The translations under genes and the position numbers were made by a program. DNA of 64,000 bases from a virus (taxonomy: Duplodnaviria > Caudoviricetes), in IMG/VR virus record IMGVR_UViG_3300027286_000002. The stretch is one strand, 5' to 3'. The notes under the pieces were generated by a model. The model did not search any database. It worked only from the letters and a program-made list of their open reading frames with translations, and was not told the origin of the DNA. Positions 7,656-59,753 of this stretch are shown one piece after another; positions within the stretch are counted from its first letter, which is position 1, and each line of letters starts with the position of its first letter.

Positions 7656-8585
7656 TTAAAAAAGAGAATGCAATCCTTGATTTGGTGTAGCTATTGGCTT
7701 TTTAGGTTTAGAAATGGGTGTTCCAATTTTTCTTAATTTTAAATTTCCATTAAAAAAATCACATACTCTTTGTGTGGCAATATTAGAATACTTTTCATCT
7801 CTATCTATACTCATAGCTTTACGATTATTTTTAATGGATGCAATCAAAGTTGAGCCTACTCCACCAAAAGGATCAAGTATCCAATCATCTTCATCTGTAA
7901 ATGCCAAAACACACCTTTCTGCAATTTCTACAGGAAATTGACAAGGATGCTCTGTTTTTTCAGGATGTGCATTTTTCACATTAGGTACATCAAATATACC
8001 TTTTTCAAATTCGTTTTCTATTATTTCCCAAAAATCAGATGGATTTTTACCTAAAGGATTTCCACTAAGTTGTCCTTTTTTCGGTCCTTTAAAATGTTTT
8101 TTATCTGGATATAAAGAAGGTACTCTAATAGAGTCAAGATTGAAAGTATAGTCTTTAGTTTTTGTAAACCATAATAAAACTTCATACCTACCTGATAGCT
8201 TTTTTGTGCTATGTAAGCCATGCTCAAAATGCCATACTATACGATTTCTAAGCTGTAAACCTAGCTTCTTACAAATAGGATAAAAATAAAAATCTAAAGG
8301 AAACATTTCACCATTATTTACAAAAGTGCCTACCTGTAATACTAAACTGCCATTTGAATGTAGTATTCTAACTAATTCTACAAGTATATTTTCTTGCCAT
8401 TCTAAATAGACATCTAGTTTGGTTTGAGTTTCATATGACTTACCTATATTATAAGGTGGTGATGTCAAAATAAGTTTGAATTTCTCATTAGGCAAATTCT
8501 TAATCTCTTCTAAACTGTCTTTTGTAGCAATTACAATTGAACTGTCCTCTTCAAAACTATTAGATATTTCAAAATAAGATTTCAT
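7656..8585 (-). CDS. Beta-class amino (N4-C/N6-A) DNA methyltransferase, orphan
   Basis: Motif IV LTSPPY precedes motif I DPFGGVGST. HPCQFP block. No adjacent restriction endonuclease. Confidence 0.9.
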   Translation of the reverse strand: MKSYFEISNSFEEDSSIVIATKDSLEEIKNLPNEKFKLILTSPPYNIGKSYETQTKLDVYLEWQENILVELVRILHSNGSLVLQVGTFVNNGEMFPLDFYFYPICKKLGLQLRNRIVWHFEHGLHSTKKLSGRYEVLLWFTKTKDYTFNLDSIRVPSLYPDKKHFKGPKKGQLSGNPLGKNPSDFWEIIENEFEKGIFDVPNVKNAHPEKTEHPCQFPVEIAERCVLAFTDEDDWILDPFGGVGSTLIASIKNNRKAMSIDRDEKYSNIATQRVCDFFNGNLKLRKIGTPISKPKKPIATPNQGLHSLF

Positions 8586-8661
8586 TAACAATTTCCTTTT
8601 TTTGTTTACTGATACATATAATAAGTTTATGTATATTATACAAACTAAAGAAAGATACCCT

Positions 8662-43709: not shown

Positions 43710-43955
43710 ATGATTTTACTCACATTGTTAAATTTAGTCCTTCTTATATACTTTACACCTGCTGTGACAAAAGACTTAATGGAACAGCAAGATCCACCTG
43801 TATCAAAAAGATATAGACAAGTTACAGTATATATTTGGTATGCTTTAGTACCTACTCTTACTTATGCTTTTCAAGATTACTCGGCAATCCTCACTGCCAC
43901 CATTTTTTGGTTTTGGTTGCAAGCCATTTCATATCCTACAAAGGATAATCCATGA
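43710..43955 (+). CDS. Small multi-TM membrane protein
   Basis: Three hydrophobic segments. Confidence 0.55.
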   Translation: MILLTLLNLVLLIYFTPAVTKDLMEQQDPPVSKRYRQVTVYIWYALVPTLTYAFQDYSAILTATIFWFWLQAISYPTKDNP

Positions 43956-44461
43956 TTCAAGTTATTAAACCTGATAGTGAAGATCAAAAAGCAATCTTTC
44001 CAAACAGAACTATCTTTTTAGCTGGCAGTATTGAAATGGGATCTGCTGTAGATTGGCAAAGAGAAGTTGAAGAAGTCTTTGACAAAGAAATCTTTAAGAC
44101 AGATGGCTGTACTGTTTATAATCCTAGACGAATTAATTGGGATAGTTCATGGAAGCAATCTATTGAAAATGAACAGTTCAAATATCAAGTCGAATGGGAA
44201 TTAAATAAGCTGTATGAATGTGGTCTTATTCTTATGTATTTAGATGAGAATACCAAATCACCTATCAGCCTGCTAGAATTAGGTTTATATGCACAAGACA
44301 CTAAATTACTTGTGATCTGTGGTGAAAACTTTTGGCGAAGAGGAAATGTAGAAGTCACTTGTGATTTTTATGAAGTACCTTTACTTATACACAATCCAAG
44401 AGAAAAGAGTTTAAGCACACTCTTAATTGAGAAATCTAATAAAATTCTGCTTGGTATTTAA
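43952..44461 (+). CDS. Nucleoside 2-deoxyribosyltransferase-like protein
   Basis: IFLAGSI, W-Q, VYNPRR, QVEWEL, SPISLLELGL. Confidence 0.85.
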   Translation: MIQVIKPDSEDQKAIFPNRTIFLAGSIEMGSAVDWQREVEEVFDKEIFKTDGCTVYNPRRINWDSSWKQSIENEQFKYQVEWELNKLYECGLILMYLDENTKSPISLLELGLYAQDTKLLVICGENFWRRGNVEVTCDFYEVPLLIHNPREKSLSTLLIEKSNKILLGI

Positions 44462-45671: not shown

Positions 45672-46361
45672 ATGAAAATTTTAGGTATCAGTACCACTAC
45701 ACATTCACCTGTACCTGAACATCCTGAACCATCTGCATCTTTTACTACATTAGAAACTTTAATTAAGATTTTAGATCAGTATGGACATGATACTCAAATT
45801 CTTGATGCTAATAAACTTCATATCATTAAAAACCTGTCTTGCTATTCCACAGATAAAAAGAATTGTGGATCTCTTGATGCTGGCAAATATAGATGTTGGG
45901 CAACTCATCTTTCTCATGAAAATCCTGATGAGTATGGTGGCAAAGACGAAATGACTTATATTTATGATGGTATTGAATGGGCTGATGTTATTCTTATCTC
46001 TACTTCTGTTAGATGGATGAGTCATAGTGCTTTACTACAAACTATTATTGAAAGACTTAATGTGATTGAAAATAGGCATAGTGTTTATGAAGAACCTAAT
46101 CTTGTTGCGAATAAAAAAGTAGGTTTTATTGTCATTGGACAGCATTATCAATCTCAACAGGTATCTAGTCATTTAATAGAAGTGTTTAGTCAATTAGGAT
46201 TTATTACAGATAGTAGAGATGGATCATTTACTTGGCAAAGAACTGTTAATAGAAATTTAGAACAGGATGGAAGTAATCGTCCACATATTATAAGTTATCT
46301 TGCCACTGCTGAAGGTACAGACCAACTTAATAACTTTATCAATTGGATTGAAAGGTTTTAA
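45672..46361 (+). CDS. NAD(P)H-dependent FMN reductase / flavodoxin-fold protein
   Basis: MKILGIS, D-x-M..IY..I..AD.I...T.V.W, L...IERL, KKVGFIVIG. Confidence 0.82.
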   Translation: MKILGISTTTHSPVPEHPEPSASFTTLETLIKILDQYGHDTQILDANKLHIIKNLSCYSTDKKNCGSLDAGKYRCWATHLSHENPDEYGGKDEMTYIYDGIEWADVILISTSVRWMSHSALLQTIIERLNVIENRHSVYEEPNLVANKKVGFIVIGQHYQSQQVSSHLIEVFSQLGFITDSRDGSFTWQRTVNRNLEQDGSNRPHIISYLATAEGTDQLNNFINWIERF

Positions 46362-47573: not shown

Positions 47574-47647
47574 TGCTCCTAACGAGATTTGAACTCGTGT
47601 TACTGCCTTGAAAGGGCAATGTCCTTACCTGACTAGACGATAGGAAC
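47574..47647 (-). tRNA. tRNA-Glu(TTC)
   Basis: Cloverleaf: acceptor GTTCCTA/TAGGAGC, anticodon arm TTGCC-CTTTCAA-GGCAG, T arm ACGAG-TTCAAAT-CTCGT. CCA not encoded. Confidence 0.93.
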
Positions 47648-47916: not shown

Positions 47917-47991
47917 TTTTTATGATCCTTTGGATTTGATTGGAAGGTATCTTTATTTATGACATAGTATTTTTAGTTATGCAAATATAAA

Positions 47992-48064
47992 TGGGTCGTT
48001 TGGGACTCGAACCCAAAACCTGAAGATTAAAAGTCTTATGATCTACCTATTGATCTAACGACCC
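47992..48064 (-). tRNA. tRNA-Lys(TTT)
   Basis: Acceptor GGGTCGT/ACGACCC, D stem GATC/GATC, anticodon loop CTTTTAA, T arm TTGGG-TTCGAGT-CCCAA. U27-C43 mismatch. CCA not encoded. Confidence 0.93.
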
Positions 48065-48127
48065 ATAGTCATAATGAATGGTCTTATGACTTGCGAAAAA
48101 ACTTAAAGCTATATCTCACTACCTAAA

Positions 48128-48313: not shown

Positions 48314-48805
48314 ATGGACAACAGAGAACTCATGGCAATTAGAATTGCTAGTATTTATTTAGAAAGCAAAGACAAAGACAAAGGCTTACCTAAAAAATAC
48401 TTGTCAGGTCTTAAAGGTAAAGATAGAAAAAAAAGAGTAAATGAAATCGACAAAAGAAAAAATGAAACTGATCCAAAGAAAAAGTTTAAACCTTTCAAAT
48501 CAGATAAAGGTGAATCCACTTCCAAAAGCCAATACTCTAAAACAGACATAGCTAAAAAGATCAGAGAAAAAATTGAAGGTCAAGGCAAAGATGCTTTCAT
48601 TGAAGCATCATCTAAAGTATCAGGTGTATCTAAATCTATTTTAAGTGAAGTTTATGCAAGAGGTGCGGCGGCATGGGCAACAGGACATAGACCGGGTGCT
48701 ACTCAACAGCAATGGTCTATTGCTCGTGTTTATAGTTTCTTATCAGGTGGCAAAACTCAATCCACTGCTGACAAAGATCTAGCTGAAAAAGCTGGACTAT
48801 TGTAA
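48314..48805 (+). CDS. DUF5824-like protein
   Basis: KKYLSGL...VYARGAAAWATGHRPGATQQQW..ARVYSF..GGKT..ADKDL. N-terminal AIRIASIYL. Confidence 0.7.
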   Translation: MDNRELMAIRIASIYLESKDKDKGLPKKYLSGLKGKDRKKRVNEIDKRKNETDPKKKFKPFKSDKGESTSKSQYSKTDIAKKIREKIEGQGKDAFIEASSKVSGVSKSILSEVYARGAAAWATGHRPGATQQQWSIARVYSFLSGGKTQSTADKDLAEKAGLL

Positions 48806-49597
48806 TTCTTTAAAGATTTGTAAATTCCATTTACATTTAACACAAACTCCACACATATTCTTATATGGTGGCTTTTGCTTATTATAATGTGCTTTAAAAA
48901 ACATCTCTCTCATATAACAAGATGCTGTGTATTCAAATAATCCCTTTTCTAATAAAACTTTCACTTTCTCTTTTCTAGGTACTGTTATATGACTAAACTT
49001 TAAAGCACCTACTTCTTTTCTTAAAACATCTTCAAATAAATGATATGCTTTAGGTGTATCTGAATACATTGTTATACTGCCATCATCTATATGATCATTA
49101 ATACAAATCACTGTACCTATCTTATGCTCTCTTATTAAATCTACCAATAACAATAAAGCATATTGATTTTTCACTACACTTTCTTTATCTATCTTATCTG
49201 ACAGATATTGATCTTTATGTAGTAGCCTTAACTCACTTGGATGATCAATCACTGTCAAATTGAGATTTAGCTTTTCTTTTAAAACATTCACTGCCTTTAA
49301 TTCTTTAGATGAGATAGCTGGATTAAGCATCTTTATAAACACAGGATAAACTTCATATCCTAATTTAATATGTTCTAATAAAGACCATGTGCTATCTACA
49401 CCACTTGAAAATAAGACCACTGCTTTCTTTTCATCTAAATCCTCAATAGGTTCTTTATAAATACTTTCTTCATCTATATATGAGATATTAACACCATGAT
49501 ATTCTGCTAAACCATCTGCATATGCTTTAAGAGAATAAGGCACTGTGTGTTCAGATTTTAAAGGTGTAAATAACTTATAGAACTCTTTTGCATTCAT
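48797..49597 (-). CDS. Divergent QueC-like PP-loop enzyme
   Basis: AVVLFSSGVDS PP-loop. TASCY...CGVCVKC Zn site. Confidence 0.78.
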   Translation of the reverse strand: MNAKEFYKLFTPLKSEHTVPYSLKAYADGLAEYHGVNISYIDEESIYKEPIEDLDEKKAVVLFSSGVDSTWSLLEHIKLGYEVYPVFIKMLNPAISSKELKAVNVLKEKLNLNLTVIDHPSELRLLHKDQYLSDKIDKESVVKNQYALLLLVDLIREHKIGTVICINDHIDDGSITMYSDTPKAYHLFEDVLRKEVGALKFSHITVPRKEKVKVLLEKGLFEYTASCYMREMFFKAHYNKQKPPYKNMCGVCVKCKWNLQIFKELQ

Positions 49598-50730
49598 GTG
49601 AGTTTCCTTTGTTTTAATTTGTTTAGTAAATCTGCATCCGTGTACAAGTCAAAAACTAAATGGATTCTTGTTTTGCCATTATTCACTACTCTATGTGGTT
49701 TTCTAGTATCTAAATACCAAAGTTCACCTTCTTTAAATTTAAAGACCTCTTTACCTGTCATGCCATATACTTCAAACCAACAATCATCATGTGTATCTAT
49801 TGGTATATGAAATCTTGGTACTTCACCTATGCCTATGCCACATTCACTATCTACTAAATCAGTATGTTGTTCAATAACTTTACCTGCATCTAGTTTCATT
49901 ATCCGAACACGATCTACTTTAGCTGTCTTTGATACCTGCTTAATAATCTCTTTCACTTCAGGAAATAAATCATAAACACTTGTATCTTGAATATGGAAAT
50001 CTTGACCTTTATGTTTTTCATGCCATTTGTCATTCATCTCTAAAGGTTTAATAATAAAGTTTGGATCAGCACTATATCCTCTTAATGATATAGCAGACCA
50101 ACCACCATCTGCATTATAATTTGAATAGTGATTGGCAAAGTTCAGTTGAGATACCTTTTCTTTTAATGCTGTTATATCATAATGGAAATCAGTAAATTTA
50201 AAAGCACAGGCTATTTCATGTGGATCAGTATATAGGCAAATAGGCTCTTGATCAAATAATGAAAAAGATGGTTTCTTTTCTAGGTAATAGACACCAAAGC
50301 AATCACCAAAAGAATTAATCTTGCTACCTATTCGTGTAAATCCTAATTGTGTAATAGGTGTGAGATCACCATCATCCAGCCATAAGAGCCAAAGGTTTTC
50401 TGTTAAGCTATTAAGATAAGATATAAAGACAGGTAAATCTCTAATTTGAACATAGCTTAATTCTATATCATTCGCTTGTTTTACTGCAAGTATATGATTT
50501 TTAGAAGAATAAACTTTGATTTTGGATGGTTTATTTGATTGGGAAACAAGTACATCATAAGCATCAGTTAAGATGAGTTCACCTGTAGAAAGATATTCTG
50601 CAATATTATTCTTTTTCATTTGCATGAAAGGTGAAATGATTTTCTCATTAAGAGTATCATATCTAGCTTGCAAGGATTTTAGGTATTCTAAATCATATCC
50701 TTTTTGCCATTCTTTAAGATCTTCGGACAT
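49594..50730 (-). CDS. Fusion of an N-terminal (GNAT-like?) domain and an Asp/Asn beta-hydroxylase-type 2OG-Fe(II) oxygenase
   Basis: RVRIMKL, HTD (HxD), RFHIPI, GELWYLD..KPH.V.N, RIHLVFD. Confidence 0.8.
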   Translation of the reverse strand: MSEDLKEWQKGYDLEYLKSLQARYDTLNEKIISPFMQMKKNNIAEYLSTGELILTDAYDVLVSQSNKPSKIKVYSSKNHILAVKQANDIELSYVQIRDLPVFISYLNSLTENLWLLWLDDGDLTPITQLGFTRIGSKINSFGDCFGVYYLEKKPSFSLFDQEPICLYTDPHEIACAFKFTDFHYDITALKEKVSQLNFANHYSNYNADGGWSAISLRGYSADPNFIIKPLEMNDKWHEKHKGQDFHIQDTSVYDLFPEVKEIIKQVSKTAKVDRVRIMKLDAGKVIEQHTDLVDSECGIGIGEVPRFHIPIDTHDDCWFEVYGMTGKEVFKFKEGELWYLDTRKPHRVVNNGKTRIHLVFDLYTDADLLNKLKQRKLT

Positions 50731-50809
50731 TTTACGATCTCCTTTATTTATTTATTCTTATATTGTTTGTATTATTCTTTACAAAATCCCAAAGAAAGGT
50801 TTTTAAAAA

Positions 50810-51613
50810 ATGGATTTAAGAGATAATTTTAAGAGTAGGTGTCCTGTCAGATATAATTCTGATGGTACACATTGGTATTGCAAAAGACAACTTAGTGAAA
50901 AGCAAGAGATTGAGAATAAGACTTGTAATTATTCCAGATGTCCGGGCAGAGAATTAACAGAAGAAGAAGAAACTGCTCGCTTACTTGAAATTGAATCTAA
51001 GATGAAAGATACCAAGAAAGAGGTTACTAAAGATCCTATGGATGCACTTATTAGAAGAATGAAAAGAGAACTCGAACGAATTGAGGCTGAAGAACATAAC
51101 TTTAAGAAGTGTGATATTAAAGTAAACGATAAGAATAAATGGTTTTGTAAAAAGAATATGGATAGTGCTTTATCTATGGATGAGAAAGAATGTTATCGTG
51201 ATGGTTGTCCCGGTCGTAAAGCAACCTATGAAGAAGAAAAAGAAGAGAGTATTAGAAAAGAAAAAGTTCAGAAAGAACTGACTGCATTACAAAAGAAAAC
51301 TAAGAAACCTATTGTTAATAAGCAACCACCTGTGGTTATTGAAGATTTACCTAAGCCTATTGTTATAGTAGAAGAACCTATTGTAATAGTAGAAGAGCAG
51401 GTAGTAATAGTAGAGCAGGCTTCACCTTTAGAAAATCCTATTGTAGAACCTGTATTAAAGAAGTGTGAATGGCATATCTGTCCAAACTACTTTGAAGCTG
51501 GTGGTAAAAAAGAAAAGTTTTGTTGCGAACGATGTAGACGAAAAGATAATAGATTAAAATCAAGACGAAGGTGTGCTTTAAGAAAGAAAGAGATCTCTGC
51601 CAAAGGATTGTAG
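50810..51613 (+). CDS. Cys-rich protein with a duplicated C..W-x-C..C..CPGR module and a C-terminal Zn finger
   Basis: Two CPGR-ending modules. CEWHIC...FCCERC. Confidence 0.65.
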   Translation: MDLRDNFKSRCPVRYNSDGTHWYCKRQLSEKQEIENKTCNYSRCPGRELTEEEETARLLEIESKMKDTKKEVTKDPMDALIRRMKRELERIEAEEHNFKKCDIKVNDKNKWFCKKNMDSALSMDEKECYRDGCPGRKATYEEEKEESIRKEKVQKELTALQKKTKKPIVNKQPPVVIEDLPKPIVIVEEPIVIVEEQVVIVEQASPLENPIVEPVLKKCEWHICPNYFEAGGKKEKFCCERCRRKDNRLKSRRRCALRKKEISAKGL

Positions 51614-56763: not shown

Positions 56764-57366
56764 ATGCTTACCTTCTTTTACTCCACTATTAATGCAGGCA
56801 AAACTGCTAATCTTATTTTATCTGCCCATGCCTGCTCTCAAAGAAATATTAAATACTTGATCTTTGTACCTGCTGTTGCATCAGGTAGAGATGGTTTTAA
56901 TAAAGTCAGTTCAAGAATTGGCATACATCAAGATGCCATCTCTATTGATGAAAATGATAACCTTTATGAAATGGTATCTACACAGATCATTACAAAAAAT
57001 ATAGATAGCAATCCTTTACAGATTGTCTTTGTAGATGAATCTCAATTTCTCACTGCTAAACAAGTAGCACAGCTCACTCAAATCTGTGATATATATAATG
57101 TGCAAGTTCATGCTTATGGTTTAAGAACTGATTTTAAAGGCGAACCTTTTGAAGCAAGTAAATATCTTTTAGCTTGGTCGGATCATATTAGAGAAGTTGA
57201 AACATGGGCAGAAAATAGCAACACTGCTGAAAAAGCATTGATGAATATTAAACTAGATGAACACGGTAAACGAATTACTAATGGTGATTCCGTGTCTGTT
57301 GGTTTTGCATATAAAGCTGTTTCTAGATCTGAATTTAATATCTATAAACATTGGAATAAGAAATAA
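56764..57366 (+). CDS. tdk: Thymidine kinase (type II)
   Basis: YSTINAGKT, VDESQFL, YGLRTDF.GEPF..S..LLA. Confidence 0.92.
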   Translation: MLTFFYSTINAGKTANLILSAHACSQRNIKYLIFVPAVASGRDGFNKVSSRIGIHQDAISIDENDNLYEMVSTQIITKNIDSNPLQIVFVDESQFLTAKQVAQLTQICDIYNVQVHAYGLRTDFKGEPFEASKYLLAWSDHIREVETWAENSNTAEKALMNIKLDEHGKRITNGDSVSVGFAYKAVSRSEFNIYKHWNKK

Positions 57367-57412
57367 TACTTTTATTTTGTATTCTCTTATATATAGAAAG
57401 GGAATACATAAA

Positions 57413-57736
57413 ATGGCTGTCTATAATAATAAAAGCAAAGGCATGAATTTTTGGATTAGACCAACAGGACAAAACACTTTAAAAGGTGTTGAGGATAATG
57501 AATTTAATCCACCTGTTTTACCTGCTACTCTTATTCAAGAATTACTCAGCGATTATCCTGATGCTCGTAAAGGTTTCTTAGAACTTTTACCTACCATGTT
57601 GCCTGAAGAACAAGAAAGACTACAAGCTATTGTAGATGATTGTCCTAATGTCATGAAAGACAAACCTAATCACCAGCAACTTGAAGATAACTTTCAATCC
57701 AAATTAAACAAACCTGTGATTAGATTTCCAAAATGA
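57413..57736 (+). CDS. Hypothetical protein
   Basis: Start moved to MAVYNNK, after GAAAGGGA. Confidence 0.6.
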   Translation: MAVYNNKSKGMNFWIRPTGQNTLKGVEDNEFNPPVLPATLIQELLSDYPDARKGFLELLPTMLPEEQERLQAIVDDCPNVMKDKPNHQQLEDNFQSKLNKPVIRFPK

Positions 57737-58014
57737 TTAAAATTGATAAGATGCCACTACAATCTAAAAAGTTTATCGCATACCTTATTAGTGAGATAGG
57801 CTGGAAGATTACTTTATTTTACTTGCTATGGAAAATTCAAGGTCAAATTGATCCATCTGATCTCACTCTTTTAATTACCATTGTCTTAACAAGTGGTTTT
57901 ATTCAGATAGGTTATATACTTGGTCAAACTGCTTTAGATAAATATGTACAAATGTCTTTAAGAGATGATGACGATGATGACGATGATGATGATAAGAAAC
58001 CTACTGCAAAATAG
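57733..58014 (+). CDS. Two-TM protein with poly-Asp tail, holin-like
   Basis: Two hydrophobic helices. Run of about 10 Asp at 57964-57993. Confidence 0.5.
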   Translation: MIKIDKMPLQSKKFIAYLISEIGWKITLFYLLWKIQGQIDPSDLTLLITIVLTSGFIQIGYILGQTALDKYVQMSLRDDDDDDDDDDKKPTAK

Positions 58015-58543
58015 GTGATACACCTAAATCATAATGAACTAAACTTTTAAAGAATGGTGACATCATAGCATTTTCTAAAATCTCATCTTCTGTTCTTTTA
58101 ATAACAAGTCCATCATCTGTCTTTTCAATATTGCCTAAAAACACTTTGGCAAAATTATCTACTGTCACAAATAAAACTACAACACCATTTCCGTGCTTTA
58201 CTTCTTTGGTATCTAAATCCCTTCTTGTATATCCTGTTTCACAGACTACCATATATCCAATAGGTTTTCTATAATCCACGATATTACGAATGATGCCACT
58301 CCAATCTTTCTTTGAATACTTTAAATATGTCATTTGACCATCTTCAAAATCTAAGAAATATGGTAGATCAGGTGATAAAGTGTTAATATCATCTTCATCT
58401 TCAGGTGTTAAAGTTACCAAAAATGCAGGCATAGGATTTTCAGCAGACCACTCTGCACTCTTATCCCAATTGTTTAAGAAACTCTCTGCTAATCCCATTG
58501 TCCAATCAATCGTTTGATCTACAAAATTATCTTTATCACTCAT
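58001..58543 (-). CDS. Hypothetical protein
   Basis: 180-aa ORF with SD AAGGA. Confidence 0.6.
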   Translation of the reverse strand: MSDKDNFVDQTIDWTMGLAESFLNNWDKSAEWSAENPMPAFLVTLTPEDEDDINTLSPDLPYFLDFEDGQMTYLKYSKKDWSGIIRNIVDYRKPIGYMVVCETGYTRRDLDTKEVKHGNGVVVLFVTVDNFAKVFLGNIEKTDDGLVIKRTEDEILENAMMSPFFKSLVHYDLGVSPILQ

Positions 58544-58595
58544 TTTAGTTAAATCCTTGTTTAAAGAGATGTGAAAGGTATTATGTCTTATAATA

Positions 58596-59753
58596 TTAAA
58601 ATAAAGTATTCATAGGTTCTACTTGAATTTTATTTTTTACTTTACCTTTGCTCCATACAAACATAGGCTCATAAATTACATCTTCACTTGTTGTATGTTC
58701 GCCCGGTCTTGACTGCATACCATATCCAATCACACCTTCATATGTATATCCCAACTTTAAAGCATGATCTAACATCTGTTTACAAAATGGTGTTTTAGAT
58801 ACATCATTAATATTTAAAATAAGACGACCACCATCTTGCAACCAATCATATGACTTTGCCATGACTTTAAATAAAAATCCATTAAGCCATCTTTCTACAC
58901 TGCTACCATATCTTTTCCACGACTGTGTTGATTCTTCTGAATATCTTTCACGATCAAAATAAGGTGGTGATGTAAAAACCATATCAAATTGATTTGGTTC
59001 TAACTCAACATCTTCAGCTGGCTGGCAAAGAAATTTTGTTTTCTTATTATGTCTATAATAATTATTAATACCTGCATAATGTGGATGCAAAGCTGTATTT
59101 GGATCAATGCCTGTATATGAATCAATATTAGATGCCAAAGCACCTACAAGTCTATCTCCCCATCCCATAGACAGATCAAGTACATTTTTACAATCAAACA
59201 TCTCATAAATAGCTTTTGCACACATAGGTGAAAATTGACTTGCTACATATCCACTTGAATTTGAGATTGTTGCTCTTAATGTCTTTGGTGATACATTCTC
59301 ACATACATTATAAAGAAACCTAAATACAGATGTTCTTTTTTCCCATGAGTTAATAGGTGATAAACCACGATCTTTAGCTTCACATTTCATTCTTTCCACC
59401 TGTGTGAAATTATCTGAACATGATCTGCCTACAAGGTTTGGCAACAAACCTAAATACCTACCATCATAAGTGAAATCAAAGGCAGGTATTTCTAGTCTAT
59501 GACTTGACCATTTGGCATAAGAGATGATGCCATAATGATGTGTATTTTTTAGCTTTGAGAACTCATCTTTTAGACCAAGTTCTGTGTATTCCTTATATGG
59601 AAAAGGAATATTATGTTTCACAATTAAAGAATGAATGTAGTTTTGCACATCATGTCTTTGATGGTGTTTTTTGATCAAATCCCAATATTGCTGGTTGATA
59701 GATAGTTTACCATCTTTAAGGAAAATATCTTCTCTTAAATAGTTTTCTTCCAT
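58596..59753 (-). CDS. Amino DNA methyltransferase (phage type)
   Basis: VLDLSMGWGDRL (motif I), GIDPN, FDMVFTSPPYF (motif IV). Confidence 0.85.
   Translation of the reverse strand: MEENYLREDIFLKDGKLSINQQYWDLIKKHHQRHDVQNYIHSLIVKHNIPFPYKEYTELGLKDEFSKLKNTHHYGIISYAKWSSHRLEIPAFDFTYDGRYLGLLPNLVGRSCSDNFTQVERMKCEAKDRGLSPINSWEKRTSVFRFLYNVCENVSPKTLRATISNSSGYVASQFSPMCAKAIYEMFDCKNVLDLSMGWGDRLVGALASNIDSYTGIDPNTALHPHYAGINNYYRHNKKTKFLCQPAEDVELEPNQFDMVFTSPPYFDRERYSEESTQSWKRYGSSVERWLNGFLFKVMAKSYDWLQDGGRLILNINDVSKTPFCKQMLDHALKLGYTYEGVIGYGMQSRPGEHTTSEDVIYEPMFVWSKGKVKNKIQVEPMNTLF

Follow-up and report, generated by a model that had tools for sequence, protein, structure and literature searches.

A QueC-like ATPase coupled to a two-domain oxygenase: candidate steps of a phage DNA-modification pathway

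Introduction

What would a phage do with a lone QueC-like gene that overlaps the gene of an oxygenase? The question is raised by a 64,000-nucleotide stretch of phage DNA (IMG/VR virus record IMGVR_UViG_3300027286_000002; Duplodnaviria, Caudoviricetes), referred to below as the window. Two of its genes are the subject of this work: ox, which encodes a two-domain Fe(II)/2-oxoglutarate (2OG) oxygenase, and qc, which encodes a PP-loop ATPase of the QueC family (Table 1). An initial annotation of the sequence had proposed that the pair modifies a nucleobase or a protein by a route other than canonical preQ0 synthesis.

Our preferred answer, to which we give a probability of about one half, is that qc and ox are consecutive enzymes of one phage pathway within a set of DNA-modification genes, and that they tailor a DNA base or a precursor or cofactor of such a base. 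The narrower statement that the two enzymes are steps of one pathway is very likely. Phage nucleic-acid modification modules are known as a type; what is new in this one is the set of enzymes, and the literature that we searched contains no account of these genes in combination.

Linkage of the Two Genes

The stop codon of ox (TGA) lies on the start codon of qc in an ATGA overlap, as had been noticed in the initial annotation, and judged from these letters the two genes are translationally coupled. A Shine-Dalgarno-like element precedes ox by 8 nt, and the letters AAGGAAA stand ahead of the start codon of qc. The same ATGA overlap is kept in the metagenome contig L015, a relative that is 92–97% identical. 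On one side, a 79-bp intergenic region separates ox from a divergent gene at 50810; on the other, the last 9 nt of qc are shared with the end of a convergent DUF5824 gene. With these two genes as borders, ox and qc make up a two-gene unit. A scan for consensus promoters at the pair gave no signal above that of shuffled sequences, and a terminator scan likewise added nothing.

A lineage of marine phages, found by scanning metagenomes, carries the two enzymes as a single protein in which a qc-like domain is followed by a whole ox in one open reading frame (ORF) of 675–689 residues (687 in L022, L023, L025, L039 and L040; 675 in L026; 689 in L027). The fused protein is 39% identical to qc and 45% identical to ox of the window. 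It is found in three sequence-distinct contigs from independent assemblies, and the order of its domains is the reverse of the gene order in the window. Fusion in one lineage and translational coupling in another, with the order swapped, are strong evidence that the two enzymes share a pathway. A separate search for longer, fused homologs found none; it was a word-index search, and its result is weak evidence only.

The QueC-like Enzyme

The relation of qc to QueC is clear in fold and much weaker in sequence. The Pfam QueC family (PF06508) matches only residues 58–121 of qc (E 3e-7; 30.5 bits against a cut-off of 22), which correspond to no more than positions 1–62 of the profile, while the phrog_1550 family, "QueC-like", covers residues 55–257. 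The AlphaFold2 (AF2) model has a predicted local distance difference test score (pLDDT) of 93.6. Its best structural match is Cap9 (9nto_B; Z 16.3, root-mean-square deviation 2.8, 175 residues aligned), which is also the best match by sequence (E 6e-5). The QueC of Bacillus subtilis (3bl5; Z 15.9) and a second QueC structure (2pg3; Z 15.0) come close behind, followed by QatC (Z 12.9), for which 219 residues could be aligned over model residues 1–266, the N-terminal extension included; generic PP-loop ATPases score 11.6 or less. Alignment of profiles with hhalign likewise pairs qc with a QueC/Cap9-like profile at a probability of 99% (E 7e-18).

The residues expected of a working enzyme are in place. 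The PP-loop SSGVDS (S64, G66, D68, S69) is invariant in the close qc family, which also keeps E139, K143 and D180, with Q145 and Y146 nearly invariant; the position of Y178 is always aromatic but variable (Y/F/W). Four cysteines, C227, C249, C252 and C255, form a predicted zinc site of the Cys + CxxCxxC type that is invariant in the close family and all but invariant over 56 relatives. An alpha/beta extension of about 55 residues at the N-terminus is conserved and confidently folded. The PP-loop, the four cysteines and the extension had all been picked out in the initial annotation, and they withstand the comparison with relatives.

The annotation had gone further and read VVKNQ and YSDT in qc as departures from the motifs of QueC. 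The differences themselves are real, but they do not amount to a wholesale replacement: hhalign pairs the VKNQ of qc with the RN motif of QueC and its YSD with the YPD/FPD motif, so that K143-N144 and Y178-x-D180 are retained. Deazaguanine is held by a Tyr/Asp pair in B. subtilis QueC (Y129/D131) and in Cap9 (Y115/D117), and this pair is replaced in QatC (bioRxiv 10.1101/2025.11.03.686418). In the hhalign alignment, Y178 and D180 of qc are the equivalents of these residues. Since the pair is retained, the altered motifs are no evidence of a new substrate, and this part of the initial reading is weakened.

This does not make qc a QueC. Its score against the QueC equivalog model TIGR00364 is 16.7 bits, far below the cut-off of 150.3, and PADLOC matched only the generic N-terminal part of QueC, with no match to QatC; qc forms a subfamily of its own in the QueC clade and is no QueC ortholog. 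The company of the gene is different as well. Pfam searches of the 67 ORFs of at least 95 residues in the window found no TGT, PTPS/QueD, QueE or GTP-cyclohydrolase/FolE domain, which agrees with the absence of queD, queE, folE and dpdA first noted there. TGT and PTPS/QueD were also missing from four records of related phages, one of 107 kb that carries the qc::ox fusion, one of 71 kb with qc, and two with ox (143 kb, and a complete one of 178 kb), and no que or dpd gene stands beside qc in about 20 loci. As far as the window and these records show, the role of qc is not canonical preQ0 or dpd synthesis, and on this point the initial annotation is supported. Singleton phage QueC-like proteins have been placed in a subgroup that is probably unrelated to queuosine (Hutinet et al. 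2019, PMC6884629).

Set beside the known enzymes, qc shares with the preQ0 synthase QueC the motifs SxGxDS, Cys + CxxCxxC, R/K-N and Y-x-D and a fold that superposes at Z 15–16 over about 186 residues with 19–20% identity. It differs by the 55-residue N-terminal subdomain, by the sub-equivalog score, by a context without folE, queD, queE or dpdA, and by its coupling to an oxygenase and methyltransferases. With Cap9 of type IV CBASS (cyclic oligonucleotide-based antiphage signaling system) and QatC of the QatABCD system, the QueC paralogs that conjugate a ligand to the N-terminus of a partner protein, it shares a repurposed QueC core. Unlike them, it is encoded by a phage, belongs to no defense operon, keeps the Tyr/Asp pair absent from QatC, and has an oxygenase and DNA methyltransferases as partners. 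No CD-NTase, Cap10, QatA, QatB or QatD partner was found; the neighbors of the pair are the DUF5824 gene and tRNA genes.

The close relatives of qc are few. A word-indexed search found just five, and a profile search of 1.8 billion representative sequences found 321, of which 11 had E values below 1e-30. No match to qc was obtained by blastn or tblastn among 50,697 INPHARED phages, nor by a single-sequence scan of IMG/VR, and P0148, a 403-residue form with an extra region before the QueC-like domain, had no phage match. One of the more distant PP-loop relatives weakly matches WbuX, a sugar amidotransferase. Others, of 371–386 residues, come in pairs of paralogs that belong to long operons, all on one strand, of genes for proteins of 370–400 residues (L034, 3916–8720; L035, 6145–10998). 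Going by the weak WbuX match of the other relative, these operons might be clusters of sugar or polysaccharide amidotransferases, and their PP-loop proteins probably have a function apart from that of the phage module.

The Oxygenase

The C-terminal half of ox is an oxygenase of the Asp/Asn-beta-hydroxylase type, in keeping with the initial annotation: residues 185–363 match Asp_Arg_Hydrox (PF05118; E 4e-15, 56.3 bits against a cut-off of 22.6). In the AF2 model (pLDDT 92.9), an alpha/beta domain of about residues 1–175 precedes a double-stranded beta-helix (DSBH) of about residues 176–378. Structure comparison of residues ~170–378 gave Z values of 14.7–15.5 for the DSBH half against 4p7x, 1e5r, AspH and 7v4p; the individual scores were 15.5 for L-proline cis-4-hydroxylase (4p7x), 15.3 for proline 3-hydroxylase, 14.9 for AspH, and 14.9 with 25% identity for a nucleoside-antibiotic hydroxylase (7v4p). 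PHD2 and the EF-Tu prolyl hydroxylase are also among the structural relatives, and there is a weak NCBIfam match to "nonproteinogenic amino acid hydroxylase". The iron triad H289-x-D291...H346 and the 2OG-binding R355 are invariant among 45 aligned homologs. With the PP-loop, zinc cysteines, K-N and Y-x-D of qc and the HxD...H and Arg of ox all intact, both enzymes look active as far as their sequences can tell.

The N-terminal domain has a GNAT-like order of helices and strands in the AF2 model. Fold searches with the whole protein were taken up by matches to the DSBH. Among named Atlas clusters the N-terminal domain comes nearest to viral GNATs, at a score of just 0.81, which is a lead only, and no conserved Gly-rich motif of the acetyl-CoA-binding Q/RxxGxG/A kind was found in this domain of the 45 homologs. 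The domain is a conserved companion of the oxygenase and no ad hoc fusion, which corrects the initial annotation, where the gene was described as a fusion with an unknown, possibly GNAT-like domain. Residues K6, W8, Q9, G11, P34 and F35, among others, are invariant in the 45 homologs, and about 500 protein clusters align with ox over its full length at about 40% identity. The two-domain layout is a conserved family architecture, and one restricted to phages. Relatives are encoded on 270 IMG/VR contigs, while among 185,579 prokaryotic species, with one genome each, only 8 loci were found, all of them on contigs of metagenome-assembled genomes, at least 4 of which carry a T4-like phage block around ox. 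From the Asp/Asn beta-hydroxylase and the free-proline hydroxylases (PF05118; 4P7X, 1E5R, 5APA, 7V4P), with which it shares the DSBH fold, HxD...H, the 2OG-binding Arg and Z values of about 15, ox is set apart by the conserved 175-residue N-terminal domain, the lack of a TPR domain and the restriction to phages.

Among the 50,697 INPHARED phages, a blastn/tblastn query with ox gave a single match, to the C-terminal domain of a protein of Mycobacterium phage LilMcDreamy. This protein, gp4, is a full-length structural homolog of ox (TM 0.74–0.76 in BFVD; E 4e-55 with the ox hidden Markov model (HMM)). It is the last gene of the leftmost operon of the phage (L126, NC_051582.1, 1–3759), after a ParB-like gene, a DpdA-like gene annotated as "queuine tRNA-ribosyltransferase" and gp3. 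The 293-residue gp3 is not QueC-like (hhalign probability 0.1%) and has no match in the sequence sets gathered here, and no que biosynthesis gene is annotated in the 9–58 kb part of the genome. Phages of this kind are known to encode DpdA without a preQ0 pathway, and Orion, the only one tested, had none of the 7-deazaguanines assayed (PMC6884629).

Methyltransferases and Other Partners

The link to DNA modification comes from a third family, which we call F1, of DNA methyltransferase-like proteins of the SPPY N6/N4 type. Its members have the motif I VLDxSxGWGDR and the motif IV FTSPPYF, and among named Atlas clusters they come closest to viral N6_N4 methyltransferases, at a score of 0.99. A match of F1 to CmoB is weak (E 5e-4), covers the motif I region only and is not counted as a sign that F1 uses carboxy-S-adenosylmethionine.

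QueC-like and methyltransferase domains are joined in single proteins, and in both orders. The proteins P0141, P0144 and P0145, which belong to qc's own subfamily, begin with a QueC-like domain and end in an F1 methyltransferase-like one. In P0184, P0232 and P0238, of a more distant subfamily, the methyltransferase domain comes first; P0232 consists of ParB_N, N6_N4_Mtase (PF01555) and a QueC-like domain. A ParB N-terminal domain together with PF01555 is a classic architecture of phage DNA methylases. A further protein of the distant subfamily, P0284, is a fusion of a QueC-like domain to a PALP enzyme, which depends on pyridoxal phosphate (PLP). No cryptic ox domain was found by the ox HMM in the QueC::methyltransferase fusions.

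The same partners are seen as neighbors. In 10 distinct loci, qc lies 0–2.1 kb from one to four genes for N6/N4-type methyltransferases; the exception is L021, with no methyltransferase gene within 3.4 kb. These islands often also hold a fusion of a P-loop NTPase to a GNAT domain, with DNA polymerase A, DnaB-like and SNF2 helicase genes nearby. On the side of ox, each of the 33 ox loci that reach 15 kb or more contains an F1-like gene. Three F1 paralogs stand immediately upstream of ox in L003, a large uncultured T4-like clade has the block uvsW..gp47-gp46-peptide deformylase-ox-PALP-SLOG-F1, and the divergent L124 has F1, PALP and ox in that other order. The window has a single F1 gene, 7.9 kb from ox, whose relatives in other phages flank qc and ox and are fused to QueC-like domains. 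Considering this company in aquatic phages and the DpdA-like protein in LilMcDreamy, ox accompanies base-flipping, base-altering enzymes in unrelated groups of phages.

Several other features of these loci may be recorded here. The T4-like block is exemplified by L005 (3839–13909) and L008 (3831–18246), with about 65 further loci in IMG/VR; its F1 is a 524-residue methyltransferase-like protein, its SLOG gene encodes a YAcAr/SLOG protein, and no cultured member of the clade was found in INPHARED. The P-loop NTPase-GNAT fusion (about 375–393 residues) recurs in methyltransferase islands, for instance in L002 (7602–8783) and L022 (13170–14297); we take the pairing to resemble that in TmcA, the ATP-dependent N4-cytidine acetyltransferase. 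Sequence searches against the PDB with the PALP and P-loop-GNAT proteins brought no informative match. Two paralogous proteins of 311 and 347 residues, 34% identical to each other, are encoded directly upstream of qc::ox or qc (L022, 8013–9981; L028, 5015–5962) and have a weak LPG_synthase_C/FemAB-like match (E 1e-3). In several loci, the gene after qc, or after the P-loop-GNAT gene, encodes a conserved protein of 120 residues. The window also has a classical N6_N4 DNA methylase gene, which we infer to be the bearer of a PF01555 match at E 4e-48. Its counterpart in L002 (5587–6390), 24% identical, sits within the methyltransferase/QueC-like islands of marine phages.

The Proposed Pathway

Characterized members of the QueC, Cap9 and nitrile-synthetase clade activate a carboxylate with ATP and then form an amide. 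In QueC and the nitrile synthetases the partner is ammonia, and the reaction continues to the nitrile; in Cap9 it is the amine of a protein. Drawing on the gene structures, folds, catalytic motifs, fusions and neighborhoods described above, we infer a reaction, a substrate and a DNA target along the following lines. Using ATP, qc would adenylate a carboxyl group that belongs to a heterocycle resembling guanine or 7-deazaguanine, or else to a side chain resembling an amino acid, and would then form the amide or join the carboxyl group to an amine. The first option is kept because the Tyr/Asp pair is retained in qc, the second because ox resembles amino-acid hydroxylases and because PALP, GNAT and FemAB-like proteins are among the partners. 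The same molecule would be hydroxylated by ox. The product may be a tailored modification of a DNA base, or its precursor or cofactor, and its installation in DNA could fall to base-flipping enzymes encoded nearby: in aquatic phages the SPPY N6/N4-type methyltransferase-like proteins, and in the mycobacteriophage possibly the DpdA-like transglycosylase. Escape from host restriction would be the likely purpose.

Whether tailoring would come before or after transfer to DNA can be argued from the charge of the proteins. The acidic isoelectric point (pI) of ox, 5.8, hints at tailoring of a free precursor or cofactor that is transferred later, not of DNA itself. The presence of several F1 paralogs that would share one tailoring set fits either order of events.

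It is worth setting out what speaks against this reading. The claim of the initial annotation that the two genes are coupled in function finds its support in the single ORF of the three marine contigs, and is set back by the distribution of the genes. The annotation had taken co-occurrence of homologs as the measure, and by that measure the result is divided: qc accompanies ox in no more than 2 of 86 ox loci, and many QueC-like loci are without ox. On IMG/VR contigs that encode qc at 40% identity ox is missing, and contigs with ox, the complete 178-kb genome among them, have no qc. Most of the 33 ox loci with an F1-like gene belong to one T4-like clade with conserved synteny, so much of the co-occurrence of ox and F1 is not independent. 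In L015, a relative that is 92–96% identical, the position of the F1 gene is taken by unrelated sequence, and the link between F1 and the pair within this phage is weak. The F1 paralogs have a fairly conserved N-terminal region and no hypervariable target-recognition domains. The acidity of ox (pI 4.9 for its N-terminal domain) and the neutral pI of qc fit a small-molecule substrate better than direct binding to DNA. Finally, proteins are among the substrates of relatives on either side, Cap9 and QatC for qc, AspH and the prolyl hydroxylases for ox. All of these points count against the proposed pathway and are reflected in its probability; the context, that is, the methyltransferase fusions and islands, favors a nucleobase or DNA as the target.

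A more specific and more ambitious version would see in these loci a widespread new family of phage DNA hypermodifications. The SPPY paralogs would place an amino-acid-like or carboxyl group, or a methyl group that is elaborated later, on the N6 of adenine or the N4 of cytosine; qc would amidate or ligate the carboxylate of this group and ox would hydroxylate the group, with the PALP, P-loop-GNAT and FemAB-like proteins as lineage-specific alternatives. We offer this version tentatively, as a possibility with the odds against it.

The plan of such a system would be familiar. Known phage hypermodifications, be they derived from 5-hydroxymethyldeoxyuridine (5-hmdU; PMC8989533), based on TET enzymes and 5-methylcytosine (PMC8256090), built on 7-deazaguanines (PMC6884629) or made by Mom, likewise bring together an enzyme that acts on DNA and others that do the tailoring (PLP-dependent enzymes, oxygenases, transferases of acyl groups or amino acids) in replication modules, presumably against restriction. 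The enzymes are different: an SPPY amino-methyltransferase-like protein, a QueC-like ATPase, an AspH-type oxygenase and PALP or P-loop-GNAT proteins are found here, with no 5-hmdU kinase, aGPT-Pplase, TET/JBP or, in this window, DpdA.

The logic has a parallel outside phages. In the synthesis of diphthamide on a protein histidine, the PP-loop enzyme Dph6 amidates a carboxylate derived from a 3-amino-3-carboxypropyl (acp) group, and in that of wybutosine in tRNA, TYW5 hydroxylates an acp side chain with 2OG. Transfer from S-adenosylmethionine, PP-loop amidation and 2OG-dependent hydroxylation would be the steps in common; this is an analogy only.

Alternative Explanations

The alternative that survives best is a host-dependent route through 7-deazaguanines. 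Here qc would act on 7-carboxy-7-deazaguanine (CDG) of the host, converting it to the amide (ADG) or preQ0 or ligating it to an amine, a DpdA-type enzyme encoded elsewhere in the genome would insert the base, and ox would decorate it. Cap9 and QueC are indeed the best structural matches of qc, Y178 and D180 are kept in qc and lost in QatC, the LilMcDreamy homolog of ox is two genes from a DpdA-like gene, and some phages do depend on preQ0 precursors of the host (PMC6884629). The equivalog score and the missing TGT, QueD, QueE and FolE in the window, and TGT and PTPS in the four related records, are against it, as are the verdict of Hutinet et al. on singleton QueC-like proteins and the lack of 7-deazaguanines in the DpdA-only phage Orion. 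In addition, qc is linked or fused to amino-methyltransferases and in about 20 loci never stands beside que or dpd genes. On balance we consider this route rather unlikely.

Modification of a protein is an unlikely explanation too. It would have qc conjugate a carboxylated ligand to a protein amine and ox hydroxylate a residue of a protein, with translation factors, proteins of the phage or defense proteins of the host as possible targets. The rank of Cap9 as the best match in both sequence and structure speaks for it, together with the N-terminal extension of qc, which superposes on part of that of QatC, and the presence of AspH, PHD2 and the EF-Tu prolyl hydroxylase among the relatives of ox. 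One may add the peptide deformylase gene that precedes ox in the T4-like clade, the GNAT and weakly FemAB/LPG_synthase_C-like neighbors, and the acidic to neutral pI of the proteins. What tells against it is that the domains found in the fusions are those of DNA methyltransferases and ParB, that the N-terminus of a fused partner is not free, that the genes lie within replication and methyltransferase islands, and that neither a CD-NTase, Cap10 or QatA/B/D partner nor more than the generic QueC N-terminus (PADLOC) was detected.

A pathway for a small auxiliary molecule, for example a hydroxylated amino-acid amide, with the methyltransferases next to it by chance, appears doubtful. The top structural relatives of ox are hydroxylases of free amino acids, to which the weak NCBIfam match may be added; ox is acidic; a PALP enzyme occurs as neighbor and as fusion partner; and distant PP-loop relatives are found in long operons (L034 and L035), with the one weak WbuX match. 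The fusions of QueC-like and DNA methyltransferase domains in both orders are nonetheless hard to explain in this way, and the family is essentially confined to phages, with its genes in replication modules.

PP-loop enzymes thiolate U34 of tRNA-Lys(UUU) and tRNA-Glu(UUC). Modification of these two tRNAs of the phage, the genes of which lie 0.7–1.2 kb from the pair, is suggested by this and by MnmA and TtuA among the weaker structural matches of qc, yet the idea is very improbable and is rejected, because the linkage is not conserved (among 12 related loci, only the near-identical L015 keeps a tRNA gene, that of tRNA-Lys, and the other 11 lack one); moreover, the fold of qc is nearer to QueC and Cap9 (Z 15–16) than to thiolases (Z ≤11), and the partners are methyltransferases of the DNA type.

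Surroundings of the Gene Pair

The window has a GC content of 31%, and the ox/qc pair is surrounded by genes of nucleotide metabolism (Table 1). The F1 gene lies in a variable region beside the thymidine kinase gene, as seen when L015 (1–2216) is compared with window positions 57370–59753. Two auxiliary genes belong to the branch point of purine synthesis. One encodes a shortened adenylosuccinate synthetase with best matches to cellular PurA; its identity as PurZ, the enzyme of Z-genomes, was considered and rejected (199 bits for PurA against 55–60 bits for phage PurZ). The other encodes an enzyme of the IMP dehydrogenase/GMP reductase type in which the CBS insert is not apparent.

Table 1. 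Features of the window, with their positions, strands and the basis of each assignment
Feature	Position	Strand	Basis or remark
ox, two-domain Fe(II)/2OG oxygenase, 378 aa	49594..50730	-	ORF + PF05118
N-terminal alpha/beta domain of ox	~50206-50730	-	
qc, QueC-family PP-loop ATPase, 266 aa	48797..49597	-	ORF + Pfam/PHROG + fold
ATGA stop/start overlap, ox TGA on qc ATG	49594..49597	-	read directly from letters
Shine-Dalgarno-like AAAGGAG, 8 nt 5' of ox ATG	50739..50745	-	read from letters
F1, SPPY N6/N4-type DNA methyltransferase-like, 385 aa, candidate partner	58596..59753	-	PF01555 + Methyltransf_25
tRNA-Glu(UUC)	47574-47647	-	just downstream of ox/qc pair
tRNA-Lys(UUU)	47991-48065	-	just downstream of ox/qc pair
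Nucleoside 2-deoxyribosyltransferase-like protein	43952-44461	+	PF15891, E 5e-32
FMN-reductase/flavodoxin-like protein	45672-46361	+	
Thymidine kinase	56764-57366	+	
Classical N6_N4 DNA methylase	7656-8591	-	
IMP dehydrogenase/GMP reductase-type protein, 355 aa	9074-10141	-	
Adenylosuccinate synthetase, shortened, 353 aa	42531-43592	-	best matches cellular PurA

Implications

Hypermodifications of phage DNA decide which restriction, CRISPR and other defenses a phage survives, and they are a source of useful enzymes. The module described here draws on two enzyme families, that of a QueC paralog and that of AspH-type oxygenases, which are not yet tied to marks on DNA, and three kinds of domain fusion speak for it. 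Its oxygenase is encoded on hundreds of contigs of uncultured aquatic phages. Sets of genes that can be cloned are available, in the marine cluster of L022 (4361–14297) and, as a cultured entry point, in gp1–gp4 of LilMcDreamy. Two matters left open by Hutinet et al. (2019), the phage proteins termed "singleton QueC-like" and the mycobacteriophages with DpdA only, may become easier to explain with this module. If the more ambitious reading, that of a new family of hypermodifications, is true, it would give the QueC family a third role, after the synthesis of queuosine and the deazaguanylation of proteins.

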